Positions 2,658 to 62,900 of a stretch of 64,000 bases of DNA are shown piece by piece (position 1 is the first letter of the stretch; the number at the start of each line of letters is the position of its first letter). The stretch covers positions 288,001 through 352,000 of IMG/VR virus record IMGVR_UViG_3300028840_006907. One strand, written 5' to 3'. Below the pieces are notes generated by a model that was not told where the DNA came from, made no database searches, and saw only the letters and a program-made list of their open reading frames with translations. The translations under genes and the position numbers were made by a program. Source of the stretch: a virus.

Positions 2658-2670
2658 CTGGAGGAATGTT

Positions 2671-3144: not shown

Positions 3145-3325
3145 ATAAAAAGTGTAGTTGTCCGATGAATAGGTTATAATTTAGTTCAGTTCCGATTGAG
3201 CTTTTTTATAATTTATAAAAAATACATGGTATAAAGATATTGATATTTTCTTAATAATCGTCTTAGGTTTTACAAGTTTTTAGTTTTCAGTTGAGTCGAA
3301 TATCATTGTTCTTTTTTAGTTTTAG

Positions 3326-3652: not shown

Positions 3653-4134
3653 ATCGTACAATAGAGATTGATGCTGAATTTTTTGAGCACCTTTTAAATT
3701 GTATGGCAAATCAGAAGTATATCGGATCCCAATTACCTGAAAAAGCTGCCGAGAAACAAAAGATTATTGATGAGGCATGGCGAAAAGGTATGGATATATT
3801 AAATCCTATCGTTAAAACGAAAGATAAAGCAGAGGATGCTTTAAAAAAATTCAATAAGAAACTTCATAAAGATCTCCCCCTTATTACAAAAAAGATAAAA
3901 GATGTAATGGATGACAATAAATATCCAAAGGATTATGTCACTGAATATGCTATGAAGTGGACTTCTGTAAGACAAGATTGTGAGATGTATTGTCTTATAG
4001 CAGAATCGGTAGATAAAGAAGAATTCGAAAAGTTATGTGAAGACAGAAGTTATACCCGGAATATGAGAGATTATATCATAGAGGTTTTAAAACATGTAGG
4101 GTTAGGAGATAATCTTGAACTGGGACATGAATAG
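3649..4134 (+). CDS. hypothetical protein
   Basis: ORF with GTGA/ATGA-type overlap with the upstream gene. No motif. Confidence 0.45.
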   Translation: MNRTIEIDAEFFEHLLNCMANQKYIGSQLPEKAAEKQKIIDEAWRKGMDILNPIVKTKDKAEDALKKFNKKLHKDLPLITKKIKDVMDDNKYPKDYVTEYAMKWTSVRQDCEMYCLIAESVDKEEFEKLCEDRSYTRNMRDYIIEVLKHVGLGDNLELGHE

Positions 4135-4315
4135 GTTTGAAAGATGGTTTTTAAAACGGCTTTGTAGAAAGATAGTGACACAGGGTGATCATAAGAGGCG
4201 TATTATTGAACATTATAAAATATTAATGGAAGCTGCAAAAGAAGAATTTACAGAAGAAAATAAGTATGGTCTTGATAGTTTCATGCAAGAATGTTTTGAA
4301 AAAGCACTTAAATAG
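4115..4315 (+). CDS. small hypothetical protein
   Basis: 66-aa ORF overlapping the previous stop. Low confidence. Confidence 0.3.
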   Translation: MNWDMNRFERWFLKRLCRKIVTQGDHKRRIIEHYKILMEAAKEEFTEENKYGLDSFMQECFEKALK

Positions 4316-4335
4316 TAAAGGAAGATAATTGAAAT

Positions 4336-7320
4336 ATGGCAGAGCAATTAAAAGTTGGATGGGTCGGATATGGGGGTAATAGTTGGATGGCTGAGGATCT
4401 TCGGCCAGTTATAGAAAAGCTAGGAATGACTTTATTCACGATTCATGAACATGATAACGCAGATATTAAATGGGAAAAGGATAACTGGTTCAATCATTTA
4501 AAAAAAGCTGATATAGTTATAGCTCCAGCTAATTATAAAAAACAACCTGCAAAGAGTGCAAATCGATTAATACAATCAATGTCAATGGGTAAACCTGTCA
4601 TATGTTCTCCTTTACCTGCATATTTAGATGTGGCTAAAAAACATCCTGGTTCATTTCTTCTAGCTGATGTCCCGGAAGAATGGGAGGAATGTTTAAAATT
4701 GCTTAGAGATAATCCTTCTTTTCGTAAACAGATGAGTGAGAAGGCTCTAGAAGCTGTTGAAGATTTTTCGATAAATGTCATAGGAAATAAGTGGCTAGAA
4801 TTATTAGAGAAAGATGTACCAATAAAAAAAGATACTGAATCGAATAAAGTTCTTATTACAGATATAATCATACCTACATATAAAAATCTTCGTGGCTTGA
4901 AGTTATGTATTGAGAGTATTCTGGAGTGTACGTTAGTGCCGTACAATATTATAATTGTAAATAATGGAACTGATGAGGAATTGCATAACTATTGTTCTCA
5001 ATTGGTAAATGTAACTTACATAAAAAAAGACAGACTTAATTTTGCCCAAGCCATGAATGTCGGGATTAAAGCAGGTGATTCTGATTTAGTCGTTCTATTA
5101 AATGATGATGTTATTGTCAGTAAAGGATGGCTTATGAATTTGAAATATGCCTGTACTGAAGATGTGGGTGCAGTAGGACCTTTAAGTAATTGTGATAAAT
5201 CCTGGCTCCATAATCATGATATCAATATTGGTGGAGTAGAATTACTGCCTGGTTCAAATACTTTTGAACAAATTGAGCCTATTATTTCTCAGATATATAA
5301 TTATGAATCTCCTTTTTTAGAAGAACCTGAACGAAAATGGGTTGCATTTTATGCTACTTTAATTCCTCGGTCAGTAATAGAAGAAGTAGGTTTTTTAGAT
5401 GAGTCCTTTACAAATTCGGGAGAGGATGTTGATTATTGTAACAGGATTATGAAGTTAGGGTATAAAATAAAACAGACCTATAAAAGTTTTGTATTTCATT
5501 TCGGAGCTGTAAGTAGGAAATTACTGGAGCAGGAAGATAAGGGCACTTATCAGAAAGCTGATGAGGAGACTCAAGAATATTTAAAGATCAAGTATTCAAA
5601 ACCAACAGTAATAATCTATTCCGGTGCCAGTTGGGAGAGATGGAGTTATAAGTCTCTTGAACAGGGGGGTATTGGTGGTAGTGAAGTTTGGCAGATAAAT
5701 GTTTGTCGTGAGTTAAATAAATTGGGTTATAGAGTAATCAGTTTTAATGATTCCCCGGAAAAGGAAATGTGGGAAGATGGGATTCAATATCTTCATTATG
5801 GAGAATTTTCGAAATGGTGTGATGGTAACTATGCCGATTACGCAATTATAAGTAGAACAACCGATCCTTTACATCATCCTTTAAGAGCTGGAAAAATATT
5901 TATAATGGTTCACGATGTCTGGTTACTTTCTGCTAGAGATCAATTATTCCTTGATAAAGTAGATAAATTTTGTGTACTTAGTAAATGGCATTGGGATTTT
6001 TTTAAAGGTCACCATGGAATCCAAGATGAATCAAAATTGGCGTTGACTTCTAATGGGATAGATTTTAATCGTTATGATAACAAAAATATTGAAAGACATC
6101 CTTATAAAATGTTTTACAGTTCTTCCCCGGATCGAGGTCTTGATACACTCCTTTACCTATTTCCCTTTATTAAGGAAAAAATTCCAGAACTTGAACTCCA
6201 TATTTATTATGGATTTAACAATTGGGAAAAGGCAGTGAAGATGAGAAAAAACCAGATTGAGATAGATAGAATGAATAAAATAAAAAAGGATATGGAACAA
6301 CCTGGGGTATTTTATCATGGCCGAGTTGGTCAGAAGGAGCTAGCTGAAGCGCAATTAGAATGTTCTCTTTGGGCCTATCCGACGGATTTTGAAGAAGTTT
6401 TTTGCATCACTGCTATTGAGGCTCAAAGAGCCAGAATCCCTGTATTAGCAACGAATTACGCTGCTTTACAGACAACAGTAGGTGACTCAGGAATTCTAAT
6501 AGGAAATGGCATGAAAGGAGAATCTTATACACGAGATTATCGATTAAAATTTGTAGATGAGTGTATAAAAGTTTTAACAGATAAAGAATATAGAGAACAC
6601 TGGATTGAGAAAGGTTTAAAAAATACGGAGAAATATTCTTGGGAACAAGTGGCTAAAAATTGGAAGAAATTGTTTGAAAAAAGTGATCAAAAAGTAGAAG
6701 CAAAAATTATAGATGAAAAAGAATACAAGAAAGATCGAGTGCTAGTTCATGAAATGAAAATAAGTTCTAATTATATGCCAGATCCTCACAGCCATTTAAA
6801 TAATGAGAGAGATCGTTTTCATTATTATAAAACACTTAATGCTTTCGTTTCATCAAATTCATGTAGTGCATTGGATGTGGGTTGTTTTGATGGGTGGATT
6901 GATTTTCTTCTTATAGAACAAGGATTTAAATTAACTGGAGTTGAGTTGATGGAACCTCTTGTTCAAGCTGCTCGAAAATATGCAGAAGTTAAACAACTTG
7001 ATTATACAATTTATCAGGGTTTTTTTGAAGAGATTGAGATAGACCAGAAATTTGATTTAGTGATATGTTTGGAGACTTTGGAACATATTGATTTAAAACT
7101 TGTCCCTGAGTATATACAAAAAATGAAAAGTCTTGCTACAAAGGGTCTTTTCATATCACTCCCGGATCAGAAACATGAAGATAATACCCAGCATTTATGG
7201 ACACCTACTGAAAATTTAATAAGAAAAATGTGGGGTAATAAAAAGAATTTTTCATTGGAATACCATACTTATCAGGATTCAAATTTACCCGCTAATTGGT
7301 TAATTTATTTCGAAGTGTAG
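4336..7320 (+). CDS. multidomain glycosyltransferase/methyltransferase fusion (GT-B half, GT2, GT4, class I SAM MTase)
   Basis: 994 aa. GT2 block 'IIIPTYKN...IIIVNNGTDEE...LNDDVIVSKGW'. GT4 EX7E-type block 'EVFCITAIEAQRARIPVLATNYAALQTTVGDSGILI'. C-terminal MTase motif I 'ALDVGCFDGW' and post-I 'DLVICLETLEHI'. RBS 'aaggaag'. Confidence 0.85.
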   Translation: MAEQLKVGWVGYGGNSWMAEDLRPVIEKLGMTLFTIHEHDNADIKWEKDNWFNHLKKADIVIAPANYKKQPAKSANRLIQSMSMGKPVICSPLPAYLDVAKKHPGSFLLADVPEEWEECLKLLRDNPSFRKQMSEKALEAVEDFSINVIGNKWLELLEKDVPIKKDTESNKVLITDIIIPTYKNLRGLKLCIESILECTLVPYNIIIVNNGTDEELHNYCSQLVNVTYIKKDRLNFAQAMNVGIKAGDSDLVVLLNDDVIVSKGWLMNLKYACTEDVGAVGPLSNCDKSWLHNHDINIGGVELLPGSNTFEQIEPIISQIYNYESPFLEEPERKWVAFYATLIPRSVIEEVGFLDESFTNSGEDVDYCNRIMKLGYKIKQTYKSFVFHFGAVSRKLLEQEDKGTYQKADEETQEYLKIKYSKPTVIIYSGASWERWSYKSLEQGGIGGSEVWQINVCRELNKLGYRVISFNDSPEKEMWEDGIQYLHYGEFSKWCDGNYADYAIISRTTDPLHHPLRAGKIFIMVHDVWLLSARDQLFLDKVDKFCVLSKWHWDFFKGHHGIQDESKLALTSNGIDFNRYDNKNIERHPYKMFYSSSPDRGLDTLLYLFPFIKEKIPELELHIYYGFNNWEKAVKMRKNQIEIDRMNKIKKDMEQPGVFYHGRVGQKELAEAQLECSLWAYPTDFEEVFCITAIEAQRARIPVLATNYAALQTTVGDSGILIGNGMKGESYTRDYRLKFVDECIKVLTDKEYREHWIEKGLKNTEKYSWEQVAKNWKKLFEKSDQKVEAKIIDEKEYKKDRVLVHEMKISSNYMPDPHSHLNNERDRFHYYKTLNAFVSSNSCSALDVGCFDGWIDFLLIEQGFKLTGVELMEPLVQAARKYAEVKQLDYTIYQGFFEEIEIDQKFDLVICLETLEHIDLKLVPEYIQKMKSLATKGLFISLPDQKHEDNTQHLWTPTENLIRKMWGNKKNFSLEYHTYQDSNLPANWLIYFEV

Positions 7321-7610
7321 TTATGAATAGGTATGACATTATTTTGGGTAACAATAGTCGGTTAGCGATGATGGAAAAATGGTCCCCTAAAGATTATAGA
7401 CAGGAATATTTAGGGGAATTCGTAAAACCAACATGTTCAGTTTCTGATGGTCATAATAATTATTGCCCATCAAAACCAGAACATTTTTTTGAGTATCATG
7501 GTAAAGAAGTGGGTTTATGTAAAGACTGCTATTTACATTATTTAAATGGACATTTTGATAAAAGATTTCAGAAAAAGAATTATGGTTATACCATCTATCA
7601 AATCGATTAA
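7296..7610 (+). CDS. small Cys-rich hypothetical protein
   Basis: ORF overlapping the end of the fusion gene. 'CSVSDGHNNYCPSKPEH...CKDCYLH' may be a zinc-binding arrangement. Confidence 0.35.
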   Translation: MVNLFRSVVMNRYDIILGNNSRLAMMEKWSPKDYRQEYLGEFVKPTCSVSDGHNNYCPSKPEHFFEYHGKEVGLCKDCYLHYLNGHFDKRFQKKNYGYTIYQID

Positions 7611-7611
7611 A

Positions 7612-8247
7612 ATGAAAAAAGGGCTATTTTTTACTTTTGAAGGTATTGATGGTTGTGGCAAAAGTACTCAATTAAGATTATCTACAGAATATCTTAAAAC
7701 TAAAAATATCCCTCATATAGTGACCCGAGAACCGGGAGGTACACCACTAGCAGAGAAAGTCAGAGAAATAATATTATCCCCACAGAATGATATTAAAGAT
7801 CGAGCTGAAGTTTTATTATACCTTGCTTCTAGAGCACAACATGTGGAAGAAAAGATAATCCCGGCAATGGAGCAAGGTAAAATTGTGCTTTGTGATCGTT
7901 TTCAGGAAGCTACATTTGCTTATCAAGGATTTGGTCGTGGTTTTTTAAGAGAGACTTTAGAAGTTTTAAATAATTTCTCTACTGATGGGTTGCAGCCAAC
8001 AAGGACCTTTATTTTTGATGTGAGTCTTAAATGTGCTAGTGAGAGATTAAAGAAGACCGGTAAAGCTCCGGATCGGCTTGAGCAAAATTCTCTTGAATTT
8101 TTTAGTAAAGTACGACAGGGTTTTTTTTCTCTAGCTGAAATTCATTCTGATCGAATACATCTTATTAATAGTGAGAAACCTATAGATGAAATTTTTGAAA
8201 TTGTTAAAAAAGATATAAACAAATATATAGATTATGGAAGCATATAA
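7612..8247 (+). CDS. tmk: thymidylate kinase
   Basis: P-loop 'FFTFEGIDGCGKSTQ' right after Met at 7612. 'DRF' and LID-region-like residues. The ORF track extends to 7546, but the P-loop position argues for the 7612 start. Confidence 0.85.
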   Translation: MKKGLFFTFEGIDGCGKSTQLRLSTEYLKTKNIPHIVTREPGGTPLAEKVREIILSPQNDIKDRAEVLLYLASRAQHVEEKIIPAMEQGKIVLCDRFQEATFAYQGFGRGFLRETLEVLNNFSTDGLQPTRTFIFDVSLKCASERLKKTGKAPDRLEQNSLEFFSKVRQGFFSLAEIHSDRIHLINSEKPIDEIFEIVKKDINKYIDYGSI

Positions 8248-12154: not shown

Positions 12155-12856
12155 ATGGAATTAATAACAAAAGCAGTTATAATGGCTGGTGGAGAGGGTA
12201 CTCGGTTAAGACCTTATACAGAAATGACTCCTAAAGCAATGTTAGAGGTTAACGGTATTCCTCTCTTACGTTTAATGATAGAGAGACTTCATAGTTTTGG
12301 TATAACTCATTTCTATTTAAGTGTAAATTATCTCTCGAAAGTAATCTGTGATTATTTCGGTGATGGATCTAAATTTGGGATTAATATCACTTATATAAAA
12401 GAACCTTATTCGATGGGGACCGCAGGTTCAATTAGTATGGTTGATATTGAAGAACCTTTTTTGGTTATAAATGGAGATGTTTATACCAGTCTTGATTTTA
12501 GAGATCTCTTTGTAGAATTTAGAAGATCTAAATCAGATCTATTAATATGTTGTAGGGAGCAATTATTAAAAACAGATTATGGTGTTATTGTAAAAGAAGA
12601 TGACAGGATAACTTCCTGGGTTGAAAAACCTGAGTTTACTCATTACATAAGTTGTGGTATCTATGTATTCAAACCAGAGATTGTAAAATATATACCTAAA
12701 GAACATTTTTTTAATATGAATCATTTAGCTGAAGCGGTTATTGAAAAGAATAAAAAAGCTGGATTTTATTTAATGGATGATCTAGATATCTGGATTGATA
12801 TAGGAACTATTGAAGAATATAATAAGGTCAAGGAATTGTTAACAGTAAAAAAATAA
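12155..12856 (+). CDS. sugar-phosphate nucleotidyltransferase
   Basis: 'AVIMAGGEGTRLRPYT' is the nucleotidyltransferase G-rich loop. About 230 aa. Confidence 0.8.
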   Translation: MELITKAVIMAGGEGTRLRPYTEMTPKAMLEVNGIPLLRLMIERLHSFGITHFYLSVNYLSKVICDYFGDGSKFGINITYIKEPYSMGTAGSISMVDIEEPFLVINGDVYTSLDFRDLFVEFRRSKSDLLICCREQLLKTDYGVIVKEDDRITSWVEKPEFTHYISCGIYVFKPEIVKYIPKEHFFNMNHLAEAVIEKNKKAGFYLMDDLDIWIDIGTIEEYNKVKELLTVKK

Positions 12857-25480: not shown

Positions 25481-25567
25481 GGGTGGCCAGCCCCGCGTAG
25501 GCGGGGAAAAGGGATACGATAAGAAAAAATCTGCTCTGTGGAACAGCCCCACGAAAGTGGGGAATAA
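25481..25567 (-). repeat. two CRISPR-repeat-like GC hairpin units (orphan mini-array or repeat-derived bidirectional terminator)
   Basis: Minus-strand reads 'TTATTCCCCACTTTCGTGGGGCTGTTCCA' and 'TTCCCCGCCTACGCGGGGCTGGCCACC', 57 nt apart. Both match the 51.4 kb array repeat ATATTCCCCGCGTATGCGGGGCTG. Lies between convergent genes. Confidence 0.5.
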
Positions 25568-30656: not shown

Positions 30657-31513
30657 TATATTTCCCTTTGGTTAAAGTTTGGTGTATAAAATTGTTGAAT
30701 CGCTTTATAATCATGTGGTAAAAAGTATTTCTTTATCCATGTATATGTAGGCATTCTATTGTAGATATTTTGATCATGAGTTTTTATGAATAATTTATGA
30801 GGAGGAAGTACTTTACAACATAAAATAGCACAGAAAGAATCGCACCCAACATAATAACCTGCGTATTTTGACAGGGCTATTATTGAAGTTAAAGGAATGT
30901 CTTTTGGGGCTATGAAATGATTTAAAGTAGGTGCAACAGGTGTGTCTGAAATAATGAGAACCTTTAAGCCAGTCTTTATTGACAGGTTATTTATAAATTC
31001 CCAATCATCATTATTGATAACCGCTATATCACTTCGTGGTCTTGAAGAGGTTGGATAGTGCATTAAGATATATTTAAAAGGTTCTATTTTTAATCCATTC
31101 CAATCAATATCATCAACACTAGCGCTCATTAAAAATGATGACCCTTGAAAAGTTCTATTGGTATCCATTATCATTGGTACCATGTCTACGGGACGTACAT
31201 CATCTTCAGGTTTTATATTAAGTAATTCTTTTCCTATTGTGTAATCAGGTTCGATGTCAGATCTAAAATGCCAGAAGGTATCTTTTATCGGGCTAGATTG
31301 AAAGGTCCTTCTCATATTTTTTCTACCTACTTCTTCATCTATGAAGTGATGCTTTTTTACTCTGTAATAGATATTATGATCAATTATAGGAGCTATGCAT
31401 TTCCCAAATCTGCATGGCCAGTATATTTCAGTTATAGATTCTCTTTCTTTTTGAGTCATTAAAGCATCGATACACATCATATCTCCGATGCCGACAGAGA
31501 AGTAAATTTTCAT
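30656..31513 (-). CDS. hypothetical protein
   Basis: ORF in operon. Starts 'VGIGDMMCIDAL'. Confidence 0.4.
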   Translation of the reverse strand: MKIYFSVGIGDMMCIDALMTQKERESITEIYWPCRFGKCIAPIIDHNIYYRVKKHHFIDEEVGRKNMRRTFQSSPIKDTFWHFRSDIEPDYTIGKELLNIKPEDDVRPVDMVPMIMDTNRTFQGSSFLMSASVDDIDWNGLKIEPFKYILMHYPTSSRPRSDIAVINNDDWEFINNLSIKTGLKVLIISDTPVAPTLNHFIAPKDIPLTSIIALSKYAGYYVGCDSFCAILCCKVLPPHKLFIKTHDQNIYNRMPTYTWIKKYFLPHDYKAIQQFYTPNFNQREI

Positions 31514-49032: not shown

Positions 49033-49610
49033 TGATTTGTTCTGATGAATATCAATTCATATTTTATGCAGTCCCTAAAACCGGTTCTCGATCCATGCAA
49101 AATTTTCTTCAACGTTACGGTCGTCGCTCTGTAACTGGCTGGTCACCTAATCATAATAATTATGAAGAAGTAAAAAGTGATGTAGGTATAGAAAAAAGTA
49201 ATAAATATTTTAAGTTTGCTTTTTTCAGAAATCCATGGGCTATGCTTGTATCCATGTATTTCTATAATATGCATATATGGGGACTAAATGCCAAAAAAGA
49301 TTCTGTTGTAAATTGGCTTAATACATATAAAGGCGGGGATCCTTATATTCCTTATATTTTTGATAATGAAGGAAATGCCATTTTGGATTTTATGGGTAAG
49401 TTAGAAAATTCCAGAGAAGATTTAAAAACTGTCTGTAAAATGTTAAAGATCCCGATCTCAGGAGAATTGTCCCATATAGGAAAACAACATGTAAAAGGAA
49501 GATTGGATTATAGAGCGTATTATGAAAGTCCAGTACTAGTGGAAAAAATAAGAAAGATATTTTCAAAAAGTCTTAGTGTGTTAAATTATGACTTTAATGA
49601 AGGGGTTTAA
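49032..49610 (+). CDS. sulfotransferase family protein
   Basis: 5'-PSB 'FYAVPKTGSRSMQNFL'. 3'-PB 'FFRNPWAMLVSMYFY'. Confidence 0.6.
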   Translation: MICSDEYQFIFYAVPKTGSRSMQNFLQRYGRRSVTGWSPNHNNYEEVKSDVGIEKSNKYFKFAFFRNPWAMLVSMYFYNMHIWGLNAKKDSVVNWLNTYKGGDPYIPYIFDNEGNAILDFMGKLENSREDLKTVCKMLKIPISGELSHIGKQHVKGRLDYRAYYESPVLVEKIRKIFSKSLSVLNYDFNEGV

Positions 49611-49673
49611 CTTAAATATAAAGCTAGGGTCTTATAAGTTGTGATGGGCTTATATATGACTAAAGTGTGGTAA

Positions 49674-49714
49674 GTGGTCAAGGTTCTTAGAGAGGTCCCT
49701 TGACCACTTTTATT
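49674..49714 (+). terminator. rho-independent terminator
   Basis: 10-bp stem 'gtggtcaagg'/'ccttgaccac', then 'ttttattt'. Confidence 0.55.
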
Positions 49715-49764
49715 TAATTTAAGTATATTAATTTCCCAGAGAGCATAACTAATGCAAAGAAGTT

Positions 49765-49808
49765 TAGGTTGTGGGACCAAGGTCAGGGTTCTGCAACCTA
49801 TTTTTTTA
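49765..49808 (+). terminator. second hairpin + T-tract (terminator-like)
   Basis: Stem 'taggttg'/'caaccta' with a structured interior, then 'ttttttt'. Confidence 0.4.
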
Positions 49809-49949
49809 TCCTATAATACCTCCCATAATTTATGCCCATTAAAGAGGCCAGTAAAAATTTATTTTCTGGCATTTTTTGTAATAAACTTCTAATATCTGTA
49901 ACCTCCGATAAAGGGAAAGCGACTATTACCCTAAAAAGGAGGTCCGTTT

Positions 49950-50816
49950 ATGGACAAAAAATATGAAGACCGAATGCTTGTCGTTTTTATCTTAGTGGGT
50001 CTAGTTGGTGGGTCACTGTTCTATTTCCTTAAAGATGGTCAGCCTCTCAGCTCAATTTTCATGACTTTCGCTCTATCAAGTATCCTCTATCGATTCCTGG
50101 GTGGAATTGGCCAAGGCACAAAATTCAGTGTCGGAGCATTTCGGTTAGGTGGTAGTGCAGCCTTCATGATCGGCTGTATCTTTTTTATCAACGAGTACAT
50201 TTTCCCAAAACCAGAAATCAACACCATTGTTTTAAGTACTCCCCAGGATCGATGGGTTCCTGTTAAATACCCTACAGGTGAGTATGTGAATGTTAAGGTA
50301 TTAACTCCTTCTGGAGATACTATTATTCATGGTATAAGTAGTGTAGAAATGGATGCTTTAAAAAAAAGGGAATACTGCATCACAAAAGAAGGGGAGAATT
50401 TTTATATCTGTTCTAATGCTGATTCAACGGTAATAGGCCATCTTAAGTTTGAAGATGTTTTTAAAGCTATTGAAAATGATATCCATATCACAGTCCAAGA
50501 TTTTCGGGTTTTTAAATTATACCCTAATCCTATAAATGACCCAAAAGATCAAGAAAAGAAATATAAAACTACTGATTCACTTGATGCTGTAAGTCAGACT
50601 TTTCCCATAGTAATCGAAGTCGATAAAACTAATATGAATATAAAGACAAAGGATGACAGTTTATTAACATCAGATGTACCTCGTAGTGAAAAATTCTATT
50701 TAGTTGATATTGAAAATGAGTATTTTATAGTTACAATATTACATGCTAATTTAGAAACATCAGAAAGTAAATGGTATTCTGAGTTTCTTGTTGGAAAAGT
50801 ATCTATTAATCGATAG
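49950..50816 (+). CDS. membrane protein
   Basis: RBS 'aaaaggagg'. Three N-terminal hydrophobic helices. Confidence 0.5.
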   Translation: MDKKYEDRMLVVFILVGLVGGSLFYFLKDGQPLSSIFMTFALSSILYRFLGGIGQGTKFSVGAFRLGGSAAFMIGCIFFINEYIFPKPEINTIVLSTPQDRWVPVKYPTGEYVNVKVLTPSGDTIIHGISSVEMDALKKREYCITKEGENFYICSNADSTVIGHLKFEDVFKAIENDIHITVQDFRVFKLYPNPINDPKDQEKKYKTTDSLDAVSQTFPIVIEVDKTNMNIKTKDDSLLTSDVPRSEKFYLVDIENEYFIVTILHANLETSESKWYSEFLVGKVSINR

Positions 50817-51252
50817 AGGTAATATGAGCAATATGAAAATTGCAATAGCTTCTTATATGCGTTATACAGTTGTTTTAGCCAACTTGAAAGAGCATTTCAA
50901 AAGAGAACTCGATCTAGCTGGCCTATTTGATAAAGACTCCGATTATAATGGAATGATAGGTAACGCTGTTATGGACCTGTGTAAAGTCTTCTCTGATCAG
51001 GGCCATAGCGGGTTCTCCGCGAACTGGGTTCTGAAATTGTTCGATACTCTTGGTCACTATAAAACGTTGACTCCTATTACAGATAATCCGAAAGAGTGGA
51101 TGAAGGTTACAGATGGCCTCGGTAGAGATGAACCGGTCTGGCAGAGTAATCGAAATCCTTCCCTTTTTTCTAATAATGGTGGAAAGAGTTATTATGATGT
51201 AGACGATAAGAAGCGTAAGAAGATCCGCTCTAAAAAGTTTAAAAAGAAATAA
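50788..51252 (+). CDS. hypothetical protein with basic tail
   Basis: ORF. Probable start at the internal Met (MSNMKIAIAS, about 50824). Ends 'KRKKIRSKKFKKK'. Confidence 0.45.
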   Translation: MLEKYLLIDRGNMSNMKIAIASYMRYTVVLANLKEHFKRELDLAGLFDKDSDYNGMIGNAVMDLCKVFSDQGHSGFSANWVLKLFDTLGHYKTLTPITDNPKEWMKVTDGLGRDEPVWQSNRNPSLFSNNGGKSYYDVDDKKRKKIRSKKFKKK

Positions 51253-51414
51253 TTTTTCTGAATAAATCAGGTTTTTTTCTTATTCTTTCGATAATTTCTC
51301 TTCTCTTTTTTCTCATAATTTATTATAATTATATATAGTATCTATAGCTCTTTGAAATTGGTAGAAATTTACTGAATCCGTAAGCCCTTGATCTTATGAT
51401 ATTTATGTTTTAGT
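51253..51414 (+). promoter_or_regulatory. CRISPR leader (AT-rich) with candidate promoter
   Basis: 162-bp AT-rich non-coding stretch directly 5' of the first repeat. 'ttgatc'-17 nt-'tagtat' at 51389..51416. Confidence 0.4.
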
Positions 51415-52317
51415 ATATTCCCCGCGTATGCGGGGCTGGGCCGATAAATCTTAAAATGGGTAAGATAAAAACCTGAATATTCCCCGCCCATGCGGGGCTG
51501 ATGCGTAATATAAATAATTTTTGATCAATTATAGGACATATTCCCCGCCCCTGCGGGGATTCCCCGAAAATATTGATGTTTTTTTGTATATATCAAAAAT
51601 ATTCCCCGCCCCTGCGGGGTTGATGCGAATACCGAACAAGTGCAGGGCCTGCAGATTATATATTCCCCGCGTATGCGGGGCTGGCGCGTAGGAGGTAAAA
51701 ATGAAATCGAAACATATTCCCCGCGTATGCGGGGCTGGTTCTAGAATTGAATGAAGCGCTGAATTTTCCCCGCCCATGCGGGGCTGAACCGACCGGGAAA
51801 TCATATCTATCCATAAATCTTGCATATTCCCCGCGTATGCGGGGCTGAACCGATACTAGATTGGGACATGTGTTTACCCAGAACATATTCCCCGCCCATG
51901 CGGGGCTGAACCGATTTCAAAAAACACGACCAGATAAAGATGAATATTCCCCGCGTATGCGGGGCTGTGTCAGGGTGAGAGGCTCGTGACGAATAATTTT
52001 TCATATTCCCCGACTCTTCGGGGTTGCCCCTCAGGAAGCTATTGAATTGCAAAAAACTGTATTCCCCGTCTATGCGGGGCTGTCTCTCCACATGCAAATG
52101 TAAGTAGTAAATACTGAATATTCCCCGGCATTCCGGGGCTGATCCCGTCTGGTAAAAACATAAAATGGTTCATCATAAGTATTCCCCGCCCATGCGAGGT
52201 TGGGCCATCCAGTACTGCTACTGCTAGGACCGTATTCCCCGCCCATGCGGGGCTGATCCTACGACTGGGACAGAAGTATTCATTGGTTTCACCCCGGCCT
52301 TTCCGGGGTCTAAAATA
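51415..52317 (+). CRISPR. CRISPR array, 16 repeats, type I-E-like 29-nt repeat ATATTCCCCGCGTATGCGGGGCTGAACCG, no cas genes in the window
   Basis: Repeat starts at 51415, 51477, 51538, 51599, 51660, 51714, 51763, 51824, 51885, 51944, 52003, 52059, 52118, 52179, 52232 and 52289. Periodicity is mostly 61 bp (29+32). Repeats share TTCCCCGCG...GCGGGG and the AACCG tail with the E. coli I-E repeat. Distal repeats are progressively degenerate. Spacers are unique and AT-rich. Confidence 0.8.
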
Positions 52318-52355
52318 AGGATCTGAGATTTTTTTCTTAGATCCTTATATTTTTA
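52317..52355 (+). terminator. hairpin terminator at distal end of array
   Basis: Stem 'aaggatctgag'/'cttagatcctt' with a T-rich loop, followed by 'tatattttt'. Confidence 0.45.
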
Positions 52356-52409
52356 ATAATGTATTTATATTATTCCTTTAAATAATATCAAAATAAAAAA
52401 GGAAAAAGT

Positions 52410-53315
52410 ATGGCAATTGCGTTTATGAGAGGAAGCACCACTAATCAGAATGATTTGACCATAACGGTACGTGATACATCCAATAATTTGATCGACCCGT
52501 ATTCGTTGGAGTATGCTGTCTTCGATTACACTAGTGGCACTGAGGTCCTCATCGGATCCCCTGTTAATACTCCGCTCAAGTTGTCAACAGGAGAATATTG
52601 GGCGGAGGTTGTAATAGCAGCCGATGCCAATATAGGTCTCTGGCGCATCCGTTGGACAATTCAAGAAACAGCAGTCAGTCCTGTTTATCAATCGGTTCAG
52701 GAATTTCAAGTAGTAGGTTCCAGTGTTGTGACGAGTGTAACCGGAGATGCAAATTTTGATGCATTGGTCCATTCTTTACGAGTGATACTCCGAGACAACA
52801 ATCCGGACCGCAACTACAGATTTCGTCCCCCAGCTTCCGAGAAATTTATCCAAGGTCAGACCCAAGTCTTTGGATTCATTTGGGAAGATGAAGAGCTTGT
52901 AGAGTATATATACATGGCTATTGACGACTTCAATTCACGCCCCCCGACTACAGGTATAGATGTGGCCAATCTTTGGGGAACTGAGAGACGGTGGAGAACT
53001 ACAATTATTTTAAGAGCAGCAGCTTTTGCATGTTTCGCTATAACAATGAATTGGATCGCTGACGAATTTTCTTATTCAATTTCTGGAGTATCTCTTGACA
53101 TTGAGAAATCTTCGAAGTATCAATCTATGAAAGAGAATTATATCAATGAATATGACAAGCTTGTCGAGGCCAATAAGAGATCCATAAAAATTATAAAAGG
53201 TCTTAGGCAATATCGGTACGGGGTGGGCATCACGAGCGCCCTGGGACCCATGAACAGACCTGGAGTTCAAAGTAGAAGAAACCTTATAAGTCCAAGTTAT
53301 GGCCCTTATTTCTAA
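52410..53315 (+). CDS. hypothetical protein (compositionally GC-richer than neighbours)
   Basis: RBS 'aaaggaaa'. 301 aa. No Cas-like motif. Confidence 0.5.
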   Translation: MAIAFMRGSTTNQNDLTITVRDTSNNLIDPYSLEYAVFDYTSGTEVLIGSPVNTPLKLSTGEYWAEVVIAADANIGLWRIRWTIQETAVSPVYQSVQEFQVVGSSVVTSVTGDANFDALVHSLRVILRDNNPDRNYRFRPPASEKFIQGQTQVFGFIWEDEELVEYIYMAIDDFNSRPPTTGIDVANLWGTERRWRTTIILRAAAFACFAITMNWIADEFSYSISGVSLDIEKSSKYQSMKENYINEYDKLVEANKRSIKIIKGLRQYRYGVGITSALGPMNRPGVQSRRNLISPSYGPYF

Positions 53316-53408
53316 TGAGTTATGGAGATGATAGCTTTTTCTGTAAATCTAAATTATTCTATATGATTTTATAAAGAATATTTGTAGACTTGGACCTAGG
53401 GCAGTACC

Positions 53409-55916
53409 TTATATTTTATTATTTTTTCTAAGGAGAGCTATCTGACGTTTAATCCATCGAGGAGTTTCTTCAAGAGTTTCAGCCATTTGATTTCTTGTCA
53501 TCTTTCCACGATTATCTATTATGAATTGGAGCTTTTCTTCAGTCTTTCTATCTTTGGTACAACCAATAGGGTTTTTTGTAGATAATGTACCTTTTTTTTG
53601 TAAGAATTTTATTTGAGATTTAACCCATCGCTCTGTTTCATTGAGAGCTTTAGATAATTCTTTTTTAGTTTTATTTTTATAATTAGTGATTATATACTGC
53701 GTTTTTTCAGGGGTTCTTCTACATTTTGTTGAGAATTTAGAAATCTCTTTTAAATAGGTAAATTTCTCAGTGGGTTGTTTAATATTTATATCTTCAATAC
53801 ATTTTGAATTATATATTTCTTTTTCTCTTTTAGGATAAGGTTTAGTAACATAATTTTTTAATTTGTTAATTTTTTTCTTATCTCTTTTATTTTCACCTAT
53901 TAATAAGACATATTTATGTTTTCTTTCAGTAATAAATTTTTGAGCTTCAGATAATATATTTTTATTCCAATTATTCCATTGAACTTTAATTCCTTCTGGT
54001 ATGGTACTCATATTTTTAAAACCATTTTCTTTAAACCATTCCTTTTGAGAAATAATCCCTTGATTTTTACACCATTTTTTAAATGCTGATGTACGTTTTA
54101 GAGATTGAGCTGAAAAAGTCCTATTATTTTTAATGGAAGGATGTTTATATAAGTATGAACTTCCAAAGTTATTTCCTAGATAATCAAATCCACAAGCTTG
54201 GTAAATAGTCCCTATTTCAAGAGCTTTAGGATCAGCATAACCTATGAAAGCTCTTTTAGAAGTGTTATTAGCCATCCAATTACAAGCAAACCTTATAAGA
54301 CGGCTACCCAGGTTTTTCGGGGTCCATGAGGCAGTGGCACCTCTTTGAATTAAAGCTTCATATTTGGGAGTATCTTTACCTAGAATTTTGGAATATGCTG
54401 TGGGTTCATTTATAAATAATACTCCTGCGAGAATATTATTGTATCTGGCTGTGAAGCACCATTTTGGTATTACTCCAATTGTTCCTAACCATTCATATTT
54501 TTTTATAAATTGGACCATTTCATTATTAAATTTTTCTTCAGATAATGTAAAAGAAGTAGCTTTTAAAGAAGAGTGATTGAAATCGATATTTTTTTTATCT
54601 TCATCAATCCATTGAAGTTTCTTTTTATATTGGTGGCATATAAAAGTGGTCTTGTTTTTACTGTTAATTTTATTTTTTATTAAATCAATGATAATACCTT
54701 TTCGGATAGCTTCTTTTACATCATCAGACCAAAATCTAATCAAATTGGGTATATTTTTATTTTGGATTTCATCATTCTTAATATTTTCTTTTATTTTTAA
54801 TGCCCTTGGAGACGTATCATTTTCTCTTATTTCTTTACCATGCCAATAATTACCATCATATTGTACCCATAAGTTATAGCGAGGCATATAGAAATCAATT
54901 ACATGTTTAATAATTGGGTGCATAACTTGATGTTCTACAAAAGGATCAAATACAATAAGATAATTAAAAAAGTTATTTTCTTCATCTGAGGATGAGAAGG
55001 AATTATTTAGTTTAACTGTTTTATATGTTTTTTCTTTTATTTCAACATTCTGTTGGGGATTTTCAACGCCATATCTTTCAATATTAGTTTCAGTGATTTT
55101 TTTCTTAATCTCTGGAGATTGGAATACATTGTCAACCCCGTATCTTGATTGTACTGTTACTTTAACTTTTCTTTTTACTTCTTTAGATTGAGAGGGGTAT
55201 TCTACTCCTCGTTTTTCAATATTAGATTGACGGGATTTTTCTTTCATTGAGTTTAGTTGAGTAGAATATTCTACGCCATAACGTTTTTTAATAGTTTCGT
55301 TATTATGTTTAACTATATCTTCATTTATTTTATCTCGATTCCTTCTTAATCCTAGTTTAATAGCTCTTTCTCGGATGGCTTTCCAGGTCCTGTTTTCAAA
55401 GTAGAGCATAATAAATTCCATAGAATTCTTTTCATATACTTCTTTTAAAAGATCATCTTCTTTGGGTGACCAGAAGTCTTCCCTAGCAGGAGCGCTTTTA
55501 CCACCATCAATCATTTCTTGTTTAATTATTTCAGGATTTCTTTGAAGGTTTAATTTTTGAGCATTACTTCGGATGCTTTGCCATGATCGATTCTTGAATT
55601 TAGAAAGGATAAATTCTTTTGAATTATTTTCATATATATTTTTAAGAATATTTATCTCTTCGGTTGTCCAGGAATCTTTTCTTGGTCCTCTTTTTTTACG
55701 GTCTTCATTTATAAGGTCAGGATTACGGTGAAGATTTAGCTTACGTGCTTTTCTACAGATGGTTGTCCAAGATTTATTTAATTTGGAGATAATAAATTCT
55801 TTTGAATTATTTTTATATATTTCTTTTAATAAATTTTCTTCTTCTATTTTCCAACGCATATGAGTACCTCTTTTTAGTATATTACTTATTATAACAGGTA
55901 TTAGAGTTATTGTCAA
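53409..55916 (-). CDS. multidomain HTH-repeat protein with Vsr/PD-(D/E)xK-like endonuclease motif
   Basis: Likely start at Met 55859 (MRWKIEEE). Three about 45-aa 'W[ST]xEExxxLKxxYxxNSxEFI...RxWxxIRxxAxKLxLxRN' repeats. Four 'RYGVE(N/Y)PxQ' repeats. 'YDGNYWHGK' Vsr-like motif. C-terminal about 400 aa uncharacterised, with two more HTH-like repeats. Confidence 0.6.
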   Translation of the reverse strand: MTITLIPVIISNILKRGTHMRWKIEEENLLKEIYKNNSKEFIISKLNKSWTTICRKARKLNLHRNPDLINEDRKKRGPRKDSWTTEEINILKNIYENNSKEFILSKFKNRSWQSIRSNAQKLNLQRNPEIIKQEMIDGGKSAPAREDFWSPKEDDLLKEVYEKNSMEFIMLYFENRTWKAIRERAIKLGLRRNRDKINEDIVKHNNETIKKRYGVEYSTQLNSMKEKSRQSNIEKRGVEYPSQSKEVKRKVKVTVQSRYGVDNVFQSPEIKKKITETNIERYGVENPQQNVEIKEKTYKTVKLNNSFSSSDEENNFFNYLIVFDPFVEHQVMHPIIKHVIDFYMPRYNLWVQYDGNYWHGKEIRENDTSPRALKIKENIKNDEIQNKNIPNLIRFWSDDVKEAIRKGIIIDLIKNKINSKNKTTFICHQYKKKLQWIDEDKKNIDFNHSSLKATSFTLSEEKFNNEMVQFIKKYEWLGTIGVIPKWCFTARYNNILAGVLFINEPTAYSKILGKDTPKYEALIQRGATASWTPKNLGSRLIRFACNWMANNTSKRAFIGYADPKALEIGTIYQACGFDYLGNNFGSSYLYKHPSIKNNRTFSAQSLKRTSAFKKWCKNQGIISQKEWFKENGFKNMSTIPEGIKVQWNNWNKNILSEAQKFITERKHKYVLLIGENKRDKKKINKLKNYVTKPYPKREKEIYNSKCIEDINIKQPTEKFTYLKEISKFSTKCRRTPEKTQYIITNYKNKTKKELSKALNETERWVKSQIKFLQKKGTLSTKNPIGCTKDRKTEEKLQFIIDNRGKMTRNQMAETLEETPRWIKRQIALLRKNNKI

Positions 55917-55962
55917 TATTTCATTTAATAAATATGGAATTCATTAATTTATAGGGAAAAAG

Positions 55963-56316
55963 ATGGAAATTGAAATTTATGGAAAAGAATTTGTTTCTTG
56001 TAATATTTTAAGGGCTGAAGTAGGTACAAATTGCCCACAGGGGGGAGATACAGGACATGGTGGTCGAACTATTTTAAGATTGATTGATGAAGCAGCTACT
56101 GATATAAGTATAAAAGTAGATGGTCAGCCTTTAGGTAGTATAAAAACTTTGGAAATATTATTAGGTGGCGATACTGAGTGCGACACTTTTATGAATGCTC
56201 TTAATTTTGCCTTGAATGTATTAAAAGATCATAATCCAAATTATGAAATGGATCCACATATAAGAGGTTCTGGGAAGGGATTGATACAAAAAGATTATAA
56301 AATAGAAACATTATGA
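55963..56316 (+). CDS. hypothetical protein (operon partner of small ATPase)
   Basis: RBS 'aaaaagatgg'. Stop overlaps the next start (ATGA). Confidence 0.4.
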   Translation: MEIEIYGKEFVSCNILRAEVGTNCPQGGDTGHGGRTILRLIDEAATDISIKVDGQPLGSIKTLEILLGGDTECDTFMNALNFALNVLKDHNPNYEMDPHIRGSGKGLIQKDYKIETL

Positions 56317-59978: not shown

Positions 59979-62900
59979 ATGGCTCAAGTAGAAAGAAAAT
60001 GGATCCAGGACCAAGCAATTTCCAATGAAAAAGTAGATCCCACTGATATTTATACCATTACAGGTTTAAGAGTTGATGAAACCAATGCCATTGGGAGAGT
60101 AGGAATAGGTTTATCTAGCCCTTTGGATGCTCTTCATATTCAACGAACTGATTCTTCTTCTGGAATGATGCTGGATCTTAGTGATGGTACAAATGGTAAA
60201 CTTTATAAGATATATTCAGGAGCTAATGGTTTACTGAATTTTACTGATGCTACAGATGGGGGCATATTCACCTATGGTGAATCAGGTTCGATAGGTCGAG
60301 TTGGTATCAATACCGCATCTATCCAAGATCACCTTCATGTAAGTTCCCCTTTAACAGATGCTGCGTTAAGACTTGATTTAGATGATGGACTCAATGGTCG
60401 AGCTTATCGTCTTGTCTCAGATACAGATGGAGCTTTTAGGATAATTGATGTTGATGCGGGTAATGTAAATAGACTTCAGATTGCTAATACAGGAACTTTA
60501 ACTGTCTCAGGTGATGCAACTTTTGATAGTAATTTTCAAATTAATGGTACTGTTACAGTTATTAATACTGAAATTGTCATTGCAGATCAATTAGAAATAA
60601 ATCAAACTGACAATCAGGCAGCATTGATAGTAAGTCAAGATACAGGTGGTGCTACAGCCACTGTAATGAGAATTGAAAATGCTGGCACAGGCCATGCTTT
60701 AACCGTAGATTCTGGTAATGTAGGTATTGGTACTTTAACTCCGGCTGCTCCTCTTCATGTTCAAGGTGATATAATTACTGCCAATGGGTATAATATCGGA
60801 GACACCACTCATAGAATTGGTACTCTTTGGATGGCTTCTACTGTAGATTATTTGACTGACCTTAATTTTAGTTCAGGTGGAACAAATGTTACTTTTGCAA
60901 CCGGTGGAAATGTCGGGATAGGTTCTGGTACTCCTACCCAGGCCCTGGATGTGGTTGGAACTATAGAAAATACAGGTGATATCATAACAACTGGTTCTTA
61001 TCCTTCCGGTTTAATAAGAGGAGCTTATTTAACGATAACTACTGGAAATTCGACTTTCCAAGGAAGAGTGGGAATTGGTGTTACAAGTCCGTCTTATCCT
61101 CTTCATGTTGGTGGAGACATTTATTCCAATACAGGTAATATTGTAGCCACTGCTGGAACTGTGACAGGTGGATCTGGTTTAATAGCTACTACAGGTGGTG
61201 TTATAGCCTCTGCTGGAAATATAACAGCGACCTTGGGTGATCTCATCGCTTCTGCGGGTTCTGTAACTGCTAATACAAATGTAACTGCTACGAATGGAAA
61301 TATAGTTGCTTCTAATGGAAATATTTCTGCTACGAATGGTACAGTAACAGGAGGCACCGGTTTAATAGCTACCACAGGGGGTGTGACCGCTACGAATGGA
61401 AATATAGTTGCTTCTAATGGAAATATTTCTGCTACGAATGGTACAGTAACAGGAGGCACCGGTTTAATAGCTACCACAGGGGGTGTGACCGCTTTAGCTG
61501 GTAATATCTCTGCTTCGGCTGGTTCTGTAACTGCTAATACTAATATAACAGCCACGAATGGTAATATTGTTGCTTCTAATGGAAATATTTCTGCTACAAA
61601 TGGTACGGTAACAGGAGGCACCGGTTTAATAGCGACTACAGGTGGTGTAACCGCTACGGCTGGAAATATCACTGCTTCAAATGGTAGTTTTGTCGCTCCA
61701 AATGGAATTGTAAGTGTAGGTTTTGGCGTTATAGCAGCAGGGGGTGATATATTTGCCCAAACGGGTAAAGTAGGAATTTCAACCAGTTCTATTGCAGGAG
61801 GTTATGTATTACATGTTCAAGGAAACGCTTATTGTTCAGGTCAAGTAGATACAAATACTTTGGATGTAGGTAGTGGCAGTTTTACTGTAAGTGCAATTGG
61901 TGCAACAAATATCGGACCAGGCTGGTTAACTTTCGGTCAACATATGTCTGGTGGAGGACAGATTGGATCTGCTTCTACCGTAAATATTGTTTCAACCAGT
62001 GGTGCAACTATGTCAGGAGGTTCAGGCGCTGTCTCAATTACTACTAATAACAGTGGTACGCCAAGTGCGATTAATGTGACCTCTGGAAATAACACCGGAT
62101 CAGGAGTTGGTGGAGCACTCAATCTGAATGCAGGTGATTCGGGAGGAGCTGGTACAGGTGGTGCAGTAACTATTACTGGAGGAACGGCTTCAGGTGGTGG
62201 ATCTACAGGAGGAGACATTTTGCTGCTTCCTGGAAGTGCTGTCTCAAATGGGCGCGTTGAGGTAGGCACAGGTGCCTCTTCGAAAAATTTATGGGTTTCA
62301 GGTAGTGTAACTATAGAAGGAGCTAATTCTGCTTTTGCTCTTTCGATTAATAATACGAATTATGTAGGAGCTTATTGTGCAATAGCAGGAGCATCAACGG
62401 TAGCTGGCTGGTTTGAAAATAGTGGTTCAGATTCAACATCTATGTTTGTGCAACAATTAAATACTGGTAAAGGGCTTTTCGCTACTGGATTAGGATTAAA
62501 TTCTTTTGCAGGATTTTTCCAAAGTACGGGCTATACAACTCTTAGGTCAGAAGTGAGTGGTACTGGAGGTGGTGATTATGCTGTACATGCAATATGTACA
62601 AATGCTGGATCGAGTGCCACTTCAGCAGCAGTTTTTGCTCAAAATTGGGGAGGTGGAAAAGCTATTCAGGCAACCGCAGGAACTGGAACTACTATTCAAG
62701 GGTCAAACACTAATGGTACTGCTATTTATGGGTCTCAAGCAGGAACCTCTGGTAGAGCAGGACGTTTTAGGTGTAATGCTGGATCTTATGCATACAATGC
62801 TGTTGAGGTAGAAGTGACTTCAGGTACAGGAGCTTCAAAAGGGATCTTAGTTAATTATACCGGTTCTGGTAATGCTATAGAAGTAAACGGTGGTAGTGGC

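Follow-up and report, generated by a model that had tools for sequence, protein, structure and literature searches.

Huge phages that carry CRISPR arrays with host-like repeats and without cas genes have been described, and it has been proposed that such arrays employ the host's Cas proteins (PMC7162821). Here we analyze a comparable locus in a 64,000-nt stretch of viral DNA (hereinafter the window; positions 288,001 to 352,000 of IMG/VR record IMGVR_UViG_3300028840_006907), in which 16 tandem type I-E-like repeat units of 29 nt each occupy positions 51415-52316 of the plus strand. Together with two additional units, M1 and M2, the window contains 18 units, and their hairpin is kept in part through matched substitutions at the two base pairs nearest to the loop. 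We interpret the locus, with slightly better than even confidence, as an ageing orphan type I-E array, the hairpin of which is selected for recognition by a Cas6e-type protein, with the Cas proteins provided in trans.

The arrays reported by Al-Shayeb et al. (2020; PMC7162821) resemble the window array in being compact, in containing host-like repeats and in residing in phages with genomes above 200 kb; there, too, adaptation and interference genes are missing from the vicinity, and degeneration of the spacers at the old end was allowed for. In contrast to the reported median of six units, the window array consists of sixteen, with strongly heterogeneous repeats and irregular spacer lengths; furthermore, no target was found for its spacers, and it adjoins an anti-defence gene of the Tad3 family. 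Racr units (RNA anti-CRISPRs in the form of solitary repeat units; Camara-Wilpert et al., 2023; PMC10651486) are repeat mimics that likewise are found on phages without associated cas genes. The stem-loop of Racr is essential whereas a mutated 5' handle still allowed substantial inhibition; Racrs often adjoin anti-defence genes, and I-E examples are active (PMC10651486). However, Racrs are solitary, which in the SRUfinder pipeline means that no other full or partial repeat is present within 100 bp, and usually possess their own promoter (PMC10651486), whereas in the window 16 units are spaced at 49-62 nt and M1 and M2 are 56 nt apart, so that neither group is solitary under this rule. Cracr arrays, of crRNA-like regulatory RNAs, similarly are phage-borne and consist of I-E repeat-like units with shortened spacers, and their degenerate repeats affect processing by Cas6e (bioRxiv 10.1101/2024.10.29.618823). 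These arrays contain two or three spacers matching promoters of host cas or toxin genes, whereas no such match was detected for the window array in the L113/L138-type cas loci described below.

Compensatory base changes in the stems of CRISPR repeats have been reported across genomes (Kunin, Sorek & Hugenholtz, 2007; PMC1896005); the phenomenon is the same but there it was seen between arrays or organisms, whereas in the window it is seen between units of one array. Among the metagenomic loci retrieved in this work, L137 and L138 contain arrays of the same repeat family as the window array, and in L137 the loop and handle positions -5/-4 are likewise variable. Both arrays are located directly behind cas6e or cas5 in bacterial-looking contexts; in contrast, the window array has no nearby cas genes, its distal handles are more degenerate, and double-compensated stems are far more numerous.

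Repeat units and pairing of the stem

The array consensus, [A/G]TATT-CCCCGC-NNNN-GCGGGG-CTGAACCG, consists of a 5-nt flank, a 6-bp stem, a tetraloop and an 8-nt tail, an architecture which, together with the 29-nt unit length, identifies the array at the sequence level as type I-E, given that direct repeats of this type measure 28-29 nt, with a G+C stem of 6-7 bp and a tail that ends in CCG. This assignment, which the earlier note had made, holds because of the unit length, the 61-62 nt period in 7 of the 15 intervals, and the match between units R07-R09 and the cas-adjacent repeat of L138, which differ only at base 1 and in the loop. The units are as follows, with the basis of each call in parentheses.

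51415-51443, plus strand: R01, flank ATATT, stem CCCCGC/GCGGGG, loop GTAT, handle CTGGGCCG (covariance model, 41 bits)
51477-51505, plus strand: R02, loop CCAT, handle CTGATGCG (alignment, covariance model)
51538-51566, plus strand: R03, loop CCCT, handle ATTCCCCG (alignment, single-unit fold)
51599-51627, plus strand: R04, loop CCCT, handle TTGATGCG (alignment)
51660-51688, plus strand: R05, loop GTAT, handle CTGGCGCG (alignment)
51714-51742, plus strand: R06, loop GTAT, handle CTGGTTCT (alignment)
51763-51791, 51824-51852 and 51885-51913, plus strand: R07, R08 and R09, full canonical handle CTGAACCG (alignment)
51944-51972, plus strand: R10, canonical stem, handle CTGTGTCA (alignment)
52003-52031, plus strand: R11, CCCCGA, loop CTCT, TCGGGG; loop-closing pair changed from C-G to A-U (alignment, pairing count)
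52059-52087, plus strand: R12, CCCCGT, loop CTAT, GCGGGG; loop-closing pair U.G on the plus strand, C.A on the minus strand (alignment, fold)
52118-52146, plus strand: R13, CCCCGG, loop CATT, CCGGGG; loop-closing pair swapped to G-C (alignment, fold)
52179-52207, plus strand: R14, CCCCGC and GCGAGG; the only broken stem, C8.A19, U.G on the minus strand (alignment, fold)
52232-52260, plus strand: R15, canonical stem, handle CTGATCCT (alignment)
52287-52316, plus strand: R16, flank TTTCA, CCCCGG, loop CCTTT, CCGGGG, handle TCTAAAAT; terminal and doubtful (covariance model, 15.2 bits)
25539-25567, minus strand: M1, flank TTATT, CCCCAC, loop TTTC, GTGGGG, handle CTGTTCCA; pair 5 changed from G-C to A-U (33.8 bits)
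25483-25511, minus strand: M2, flank CTTTT, canonical stem CCCCGC/GCGGGG, loop CTAC, handle CTGGCCAC (34 bits)

The six-bp stem is still paired in 17 of the 18 units, with R14 as the sole break, as the earlier note had stated from the sequence alone; all the repeat sequences it quoted (those of R11-R14, R16 and the unit at 25.5 kb, which lies on the minus strand) are present, and its count of 18 copies was borne out; a covariance model built from the 18 units identified no further unit in the window or in the 8-10 kb past either end. Both members of a pair have changed in four units, namely R11 (A-U), R13 (G-C), R16 (G-C) and M1 (A-U). Across the 18 units, 99.1% of the stem cells form standard pairs, and the four double-changed cells fall in two of the six pairs. 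None of 500 column shuffles matched this combination of pairing and covariation, and when the partner columns were slid by one to three positions, the pairing dropped to 38-65%. RNAalifold likewise arrives at this hairpin as the consensus (-11.63 kcal/mol), to which covariation contributes little (-0.38 kcal/mol). Because the fold of the whole array is dominated by pairing between repeats and is uninformative, the units were folded singly with ViennaRNA, which yielded the canonical hairpin, with energies between -9.7 and -13.6 kcal/mol, for all of them but R14, or 17 of 18. The R11 hairpin reaches -10.0 kcal/mol, compared to -7.9 to -8.7 kcal/mol for the intermediates that carry only one of its two changes. 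More generally, hypothetical sequences with an uncompensated transversion in the loop-closing pair are clearly weaker (-7.9 to -9.6 kcal/mol), as is the hypothetical intermediate with G10A alone (-6.7 kcal/mol), whereas intermediates in which a transition creates a wobble suffer a much smaller loss (about -10 kcal/mol).

The evidence for compensation comes mostly from the one base pair next to the loop. With the 3' letters shuffled, the exact chance that the loop-closing pair is fully paired is 1/2448 when all 18 units are included and 1/210 when only the 15 secure ones are (all units except R16, M1 and M2), on which the counts were rerun; for the changed pair of M1, the corresponding chance is 1/18. 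Among the secure units, the loop-closing pair alone covaries, with two double changes and one wobble, a result matched by 1 of 500 shuffles, and the other five pairs are invariant except for the break in R14. R16, which had been put forward as one more compensated repeat, indeed contains CCCCGG and CCGGGG, but has a 5-nt loop and foreign flanks, and scores only 15.2 bits (E 0.02) against a model that it helped to train, and could represent either a repeat that has decayed at the end of the array or a hairpin of other origin; for the counts, one base was removed from its loop. MAFFT placed the gap on the 5' side of R16, so that its 5' arm no longer lined up with those of the other units, and this placement was rejected.

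Thus, a formal check on the 18 units found compensated changes in excess of the shuffles, and the observation of the earlier note, which concerned the trailer half of the array, is confirmed. Its interpretation, that the covariation reveals selection on an RNA hairpin, is partly supported: the compensated changes exceed the controls but are equally compatible with a DNA hairpin, and they carry no evidence on the strand because the wobbles of R12 and R14 cancel. That the array is or was expressed and processed is what the pairing would suggest. The possibility that the variants are assembly errors was also considered: positions 49410-56315 of the window are identical base for base between the Joint Genome Institute (JGI) contig and a Logan contig that was assembled independently from run SRR14699966, possibly from the same sample, which excludes an artefact of one assembler.

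The units start 62, 61, 61, 61, 54, 49, 61, 61, 59, 59, 56, 59, 61, 53 and 55 nt apart, leaving spacers of 33, 32, 32, 32, 25, 20, 32, 32, 30, 30, 27, 30, 32, 24 and 26 nt; the intervals outside the 61-62 nt period measure 49-59 nt, and the short spacers (20, 24, 25, 26 and 27 nt) are flanked by degenerate units. The hairpin pattern occurs 38 times in the window compared to 0.6 matches expected by chance, and at a G+C content of about 33% in the window, the repeat units are G+C islands. The full canonical handle is confined to R07-R09, which enclose two 32-nt spacers, with a 30-nt spacer after R09; the remaining units keep the flank, the stem and CUG, and vary at -5 to -3 and at -1. Units of two loop classes, GTAT and CCAT, are intermixed over its length. 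M1 and M2 form a two-unit mini-array about 26 kb from the main array, with starts 56 nt apart and a 27-nt spacer; this mini-array (25483-25567, minus strand) lies inside a 150-nt gap between convergent gene blocks, where the gene orientation and, following it, the GC skew flip.

Several peculiarities of individual units and spacers were noticed. The 8-nt tail of R03 (ATTCCCCG, 51559-51566) is a copy of repeat positions 3-10, which extends the R03 stem to 7 bp and looks like a recombination or deletion scar. Spacer 5 (51689-51713, 25 nt) is TAGGAGGTAAAAATGAAATCGAAAC, which includes a perfect Shine-Dalgarno sequence and ATG; in the database, it matches nothing but the ribosome-binding regions of some Bacillus phages, no better than expected by chance (E ~3). 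There is no hidden structure in the spacers (mean z +0.2). The JGI annotation includes a 98-amino acid minus-strand gene at 51529-51825, within the array repeats, that is almost certainly spurious, and a protein-coding reading of the array was rejected given that the periods are not multiples of three.

Constraint along the unit and related arrays

The stem and CUG are 72-100% conserved, compared to 33-67% for the loop and positions -5/-4. The unpaired T2, T4 and T5, the CUG (-8 to -6) and the C at -2 are conserved at 89-100%, with neighbouring positions near saturation, and in the 15 secure units, the unpaired T2, T4, T5, T23 and C28 are invariant. Within the handle, U at -7 and C at -2 are retained in 16-17 of the 18 units, positions -5/-4 are canonical in R07-R09 only, and -3 and -1 drift in the distal half of the array. 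Such sharp differences in rate between adjacent positions call for selection on the unit as a whole, and because the unpaired flanks are conserved, correction of a DNA palindrome is insufficient as an explanation. The drift of the loop and the handle that the earlier note described is accordingly real for the loop and -5/-4, which are kept far less well than the hairpin, but not for CUG and the C at -2; moreover, the segment it called the 3' handle consists of the final 8 nt of the repeat as DNA, and in the RNA, after cleavage by Cas6e at the hairpin base, it forms the 5' handle of the CRISPR RNA (crRNA) that follows.

Cas6e cleaves at the base of the hairpin, 8 nt ahead of the spacer (PMC4288178), and reads the stem via the major groove, by both sequence and shape (PMC3902920). 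In Escherichia coli, all eight nucleotides of the handle are required, with -7, -5, -3 and -2 read base-specifically by Cascade, and most of the 3' hairpin of the crRNA is dispensable for Cascade binding (PMC4288178). From this comparison, the distal units of the window array probably still fit Cas6e, and they appear doubtful as functional guides for Cascade because their 5' handles drift at base-specifically read positions.

A scan of metagenomes with the core repeat pattern identified A+T-rich contigs (33-41% G+C; L108, L113, L130, L136, L138 and L142) with the repeat GTATTCCCCGCACACGCGGGGCTGAACCG, from which R07-R09 deviate solely in the loop and at base 1. In L138 (33% G+C; 118-7713), the array directly follows cas3-cse1-cse2-cas6e-cas7-cas5, without cas1 or cas2 between cas5 and the array. 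Many repeats of L138-type arrays contain the U.G variant CCCCGT and GCGGGG at the loop-closing pair, as in R12, and their spacing is irregular too (47, 52, 55, 71 and 93). Some spacers of these arrays are cut short or fused (18-109 nt), in ways that vary from one strain variant to another, and scars of recombination and deletion are seen. In L137 (11-6780), cse1-cse2-cas7-cas5-cas6e are followed at once by a 40-unit array, again without cas1 and cas2 in between, in which the loop and -5/-4 are free whereas the stem, CUG (-8 to -6) and CCG (-3 to -1) are 88-100% conserved. Both L137 and L138 encode a full effector operon. The constraint map of window units 1-9 is similar to that of L137 (Spearman 0.44, P 0.016).

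The stem changes recorded in 799 comparison I-E units from the fetched arrays, a sample biased towards the canonical stem, break down into 46 single wobbles and 14 single mismatches, next to about two genuine double compensations. Compensated stems therefore account for 4 of 6 events in the window units and for about 2 of about 64 in the comparison units: compensation is not unique to the window array but is enriched there, and this enrichment is consistent with a long history under a pairing constraint. One of the double compensations is found in the terminal repeat of L123, where the loop-closing pair has become U-A next to a new loop and a degenerate handle.

The L138-type contigs have no genes in common with the window, and their spacers do not match it; the I-E Cas7 of L138 has no relatives in viral contigs. 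The spacers of the window, searched against the L113/L138-type cas loci for seed matches of the Cracr type (at least 9 PAM-proximal bp), produced only A+T-rich partial matches within coding sequence, nothing convincing. A repeat scan of species genomes was rejected as a route to the host: true arrays were found only in high-G+C Actinobacteria and in a Pseudomonadales metagenome-assembled genome (MAG), and a Lactobacillus MAG yielded a related one. All remaining matches in that scan are single; two of them belong to a 205-nt element of a Bacteroidota MAG, and the rest are possibly due to chance because, by our own estimate, a pattern of this size should produce a few matches at random.

Several elements encountered in these scans are worth recording in their own right. 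The Bacteroidota element (L088 and L099, MAG096, 33% G+C) is present in copies that are 99% identical and starts with TTATTCCCCGCTAAGGCGGGGCTGGCTAT; it is repeat-like but unrelated to the window. A solitary unit, GTATTCCCCGTACACGCGGGGCTGAACCG, at 6530-6558 of IMGVR_UViG_3300018038_000018 (L001) is identical to the wobble variant of the L138-type host repeat; it is intergenic in a viral contig of 37.7% G+C, with a G+C hairpin and then a T-run behind it, and is a textbook Racr candidate. Finally, an I-E-like two-unit mini-array with one degenerate unit (CCCTATACACGCGGGG) is located at 12386-12470 of IMGVR_UViG_3300045988_174689 (L002; 306.9 kb, 53% G+C).

Genomic context of the array

The window is part of JGI contig Ga0180437_10000019 (388,651 bp, metagenome 3300017963). 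Relatives of the 301-amino acid protein, the gene of which follows the array, are encoded in more than 100 viral contig stretches, some of up to 452 kb, which identifies the carrier of the array as a huge phage (~389 kb). The features that immediately flank the array are the following.

50788-51252, plus strand: Tad3-family gene (type I Thoeris inhibitor; Pfam PF25185, E 5e-33; JGI call of 142 amino acids)
51253-51414, plus strand: leader-like AT-rich region, from the stop of the Tad3-family gene to the first repeat (sequence read)
52315-52348, plus strand: terminator-like hairpin of 14 pairs, then ATTTTTAATA, directly after the last unit
52410-53315, plus strand: gene for the 301-amino acid protein, conserved in many huge-phage contigs, at the downstream edge of a variable slot

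The plus orientation of the array follows from its homology to I-E repeats, the shared orientation of both flanking genes and the terminator-like hairpin. Within the leader-like region, there are only weak sigma-70-like promoter matches (51310-51339, 9/12); together with the terminator-like hairpin, they would lend some indirect support to transcription of the array. The Tad3-family gene directly upstream of the array is also present in the closest relative, L010 (4334-4708, E 3e-30), which shares the gene order of the Tad3 gene, the 301-amino acid protein gene and a Mom-like gene, but has two protein genes, for a small open reading frame (ORF) and a DUF3228 protein, in the slot that the array fills in the window. 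Given this replacement and the lack of such an array in 80 loci around homologues of the 301-amino acid protein gene, the array occupies a variable accessory slot. The 288-amino acid protein encoded upstream has no relatives in viral contigs. At the DNA level, nothing in 50,697 phage records is similar to the 24-kb flank or to the array, with only chance matches of 33-40 nt at E<=10. No Rfam family exceeds the gathering threshold, and the array yields only noise at E values up to 10.

Other genes of the neighbourhood deserve brief mention. The 835-amino acid protein encoded at 53409-55916 (minus strand) contains DUF7487 together with a Mom-like DNA-modification domain and with HNH/homing-endonuclease-like regions, and is conserved beside the 301-amino acid protein gene in several related phages. 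In L010 (6001-8362), an insertion of ~1.4 kb interrupts the homologue of the latter gene, the two parts of which cover residues 1-221 and 210-296, and this arrangement suggests an intron, an intein or a homing-endonuclease insertion. Positions 1-39800 of the window are taken up by a very large block of glycosyltransferase, methyltransferase, thymidylate kinase and sugar-nucleotide genes, the latter including UDP-glucose dehydrogenase, epimerase and aminotransferase; its extent is unusual for a phage, and one ORF of the window matches the viperin-like (pVip) models of PADLOC (E 2e-17). A 1228-amino acid ORF without a family match contains tandem repeats (61280-61686) with lengths of 102, 81 and 21 nt, and the gene after it is an ORF of 1158 amino acids; both are likely to encode fibre or adhesin-like proteins.

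Alternative explanations and possible function

The array is old and has stopped growing, and its loops, spacer lengths and -5/-4 positions have drifted, whereas the features recognized by I-E proteins, namely the 6-bp G+C hairpin, the CUG immediately 3' of the hairpin and the C at -2, persist. Selection on the hairpin is likely, and Cas6e is a plausible partner. Nevertheless, several observations weigh against an orphan I-E array maintained for recognition by a Cas6e-type protein. Eight of the 15 intervals contain non-canonical spacers of 20-30 nt. The covariation is thin, involving one pair in the main array and an RNAalifold term of only -0.38 kcal/mol. Furthermore, the central hexamer is heavily diverged in R11-R13, and under a stricter null in which positions 11/16 are free in these three units, the pairing has a probability of (6/16)^3, or ~0.05, which falls to roughly 0.005 when R16 and M1 are added. 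The strand signal of the wobbles cancels, R12 being U.G on the plus strand and C.A on the minus strand, and R14 the reverse, and most handles deviate at positions that Cascade reads base-specifically (-5 and -3; PMC4288178). No Cas family is present among the matches listed (25 of 77 PADLOC families) for the 75 ORFs of the window, and there is no cas gene among the called genes in the 8-10 kb past each window end, a search range that covers ~82 kb of the 388.6-kb contig; arrays of the orphan kind are, however, an accepted category. The closest cas-adjacent arrays come from another study and are linked to the window by neither genes nor spacers, and no spacer has a match of at least 18 nt in the 50,697 phage records, the fetched loci or the window. 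On a smaller scale, the PAM (protospacer adjacent motif)-distal part of spacer 2 has a 15-nt exact match to 31377-31391 of the window, within a minus-strand ORF, that is probably due to chance (E ~0.02).

Several of these features could also be accommodated if the array were a decoy, that is, a multi-copy RNA anti-CRISPR related to Racr units or Cracr arrays, with selection on the hairpin only. The hairpins would soak up Cas6e and nucleate dead-end Cascade sub-complexes, or the short spacers would steer Cascade to the cas promoter of the host. Preservation of the hairpin amid drift of the handle and of spacer length is what the genetics of Racr predicts, and I-E Racrs have been shown experimentally to be active (PMC10651486); the 20-27 nt spacers are similar to the pseudo-spacers, of 21-24 nt, that phage I-E Cracr arrays contain (bioRxiv 10.1101/2024.10.29.618823); an anti-defence gene immediately precedes the array, and the slot has other contents in L010; and none of the spacers has a protospacer in the sources searched. 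However, the array does not consist of solitary units, and arrays are by definition filtered out in the pipeline through which Racrs were discovered; the Cracr arrays described so far contain 2-3 spacers compared to the 15 in the window; R07-R09 are perfect guide-type units with 32-nt spacers; the cas-adjacent array of L137 shows similar drift of the loop and -5/-4, so that drift alone is not a sign of a decoy; there is no convincing seed match between a spacer and the L113/L138-type cas loci, which are not known to be those of the host; and the target of Tad3 is Thoeris rather than CRISPR. On balance, we regard a decoy as unlikely, though less so than the other rivals, and the same doubtful standing applies to its specific form, a 'poly-Racr' sponge of 16 Cas6e-binding hairpins on one RNA in the anti-defence slot of a huge phage. 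If such a sponge were real, the variants of its stem, loop and handle would perhaps cover variants of Cas6e or Cascade in different host strains. The paired stems might, on the other hand, have arisen without any selection at the RNA level, in a dead relic where hairpin-templated repair or strand switching during replication copies a change from one palindrome arm to the other. The covariation is equally good on either strand, with R12 and R14 exchanging roles, and compensation in a palindrome necessarily means that one and the same base change is present at both mirror positions; no cas genes or targets were found in the sequences searched, and deletions affecting spacer length are typical of decay. 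Templated correction, however, leaves the conserved unpaired flanks (T2, T4, T5, CUG and the C at -2, 89-100%) unexplained, ordinary I-E arrays with the same palindrome are mostly uncorrected (60 single changes vs about two doubles), and R12 and R14 themselves are still uncorrected, which makes this explanation improbable in our view.

Still less credence can be given to a mosaic origin, whereby the variant units were recombined in from other I-E arrays with stems that had already co-evolved, so that the compensation occurred elsewhere. The interleaving of the GTAT and CCAT loop classes is not expected from simple growth at the leader end, and L138-type host arrays do contain recombination and deletion scars. 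Stems of the CCCCAC/GTGGGG type occur in I-E repeats of other bacteria, another point for such an origin. Import is disfavoured because R11-R13 retain the local flanks of their neighbours, ATATT or GTATT on one side and CTG or TTG on the other; also, no arrays with CCCCGA/TCGGGG or CCCCGG/CCGGGG stems were found in the fetched loci, a weak argument because all scan patterns fixed pair 10/17 and those of the genome and metagenome scans fixed the loop-closing pair as well. Even imported units would have stayed paired since their arrival. Finally, the hairpins might have nothing to do with CRISPR and represent tandem G+C hairpins acting as transcription terminators, or an intergenic repeat similar to repetitive extragenic palindromes (REPs), given that three units are weak terminator-like sites on the minus strand and that M1 and M2 lie between convergent genes. 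This explanation is effectively excluded because the whole unit, including the handle, agrees with cas-adjacent I-E repeats at all but 5 of the 29 positions, with a 61-nt period; in addition, no U-tract (T-run) follows the hairpins on the plus strand, sixteen tandem terminators would lack a rationale, and one tandem block and one pair do not amount to the dispersed distribution typical of REPs.

Under the reading that we prefer, an orphan I-E array served by Cas proteins in trans, we infer transcription, processing, a protein partner and an output that either guides or jams Cascade. The transcript would be a substrate or ligand of a Cas6e-type endoribonuclease and, as such, subject to purifying selection; the enzyme could be supplied by the host or by phage genes outside the ~82 kb examined. 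Each hairpin would be bound by Cas6e and cut at its 3' base. R07-R09 could give rise to canonical crRNAs for the host Cascade, whereas the degenerate units would occupy Cas6e yet probably load Cascade poorly.

Compensatory changes in CRISPR stems (since 2007), cas-less phage arrays and repeat-mimic anti-CRISPR RNAs have all been described already, and the window array does not change the known picture. What it offers is an internal readout of the repeat positions that are constrained once acquisition no longer homogenises the repeats. The constraint would imply that an interaction between RNA and protein has kept its importance for a phage in which the ~82 kb around the array are free of cas genes. 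The array thus provides a specific case on which to decide if phage arrays that lack cas genes guide the host Cascade or jam it.

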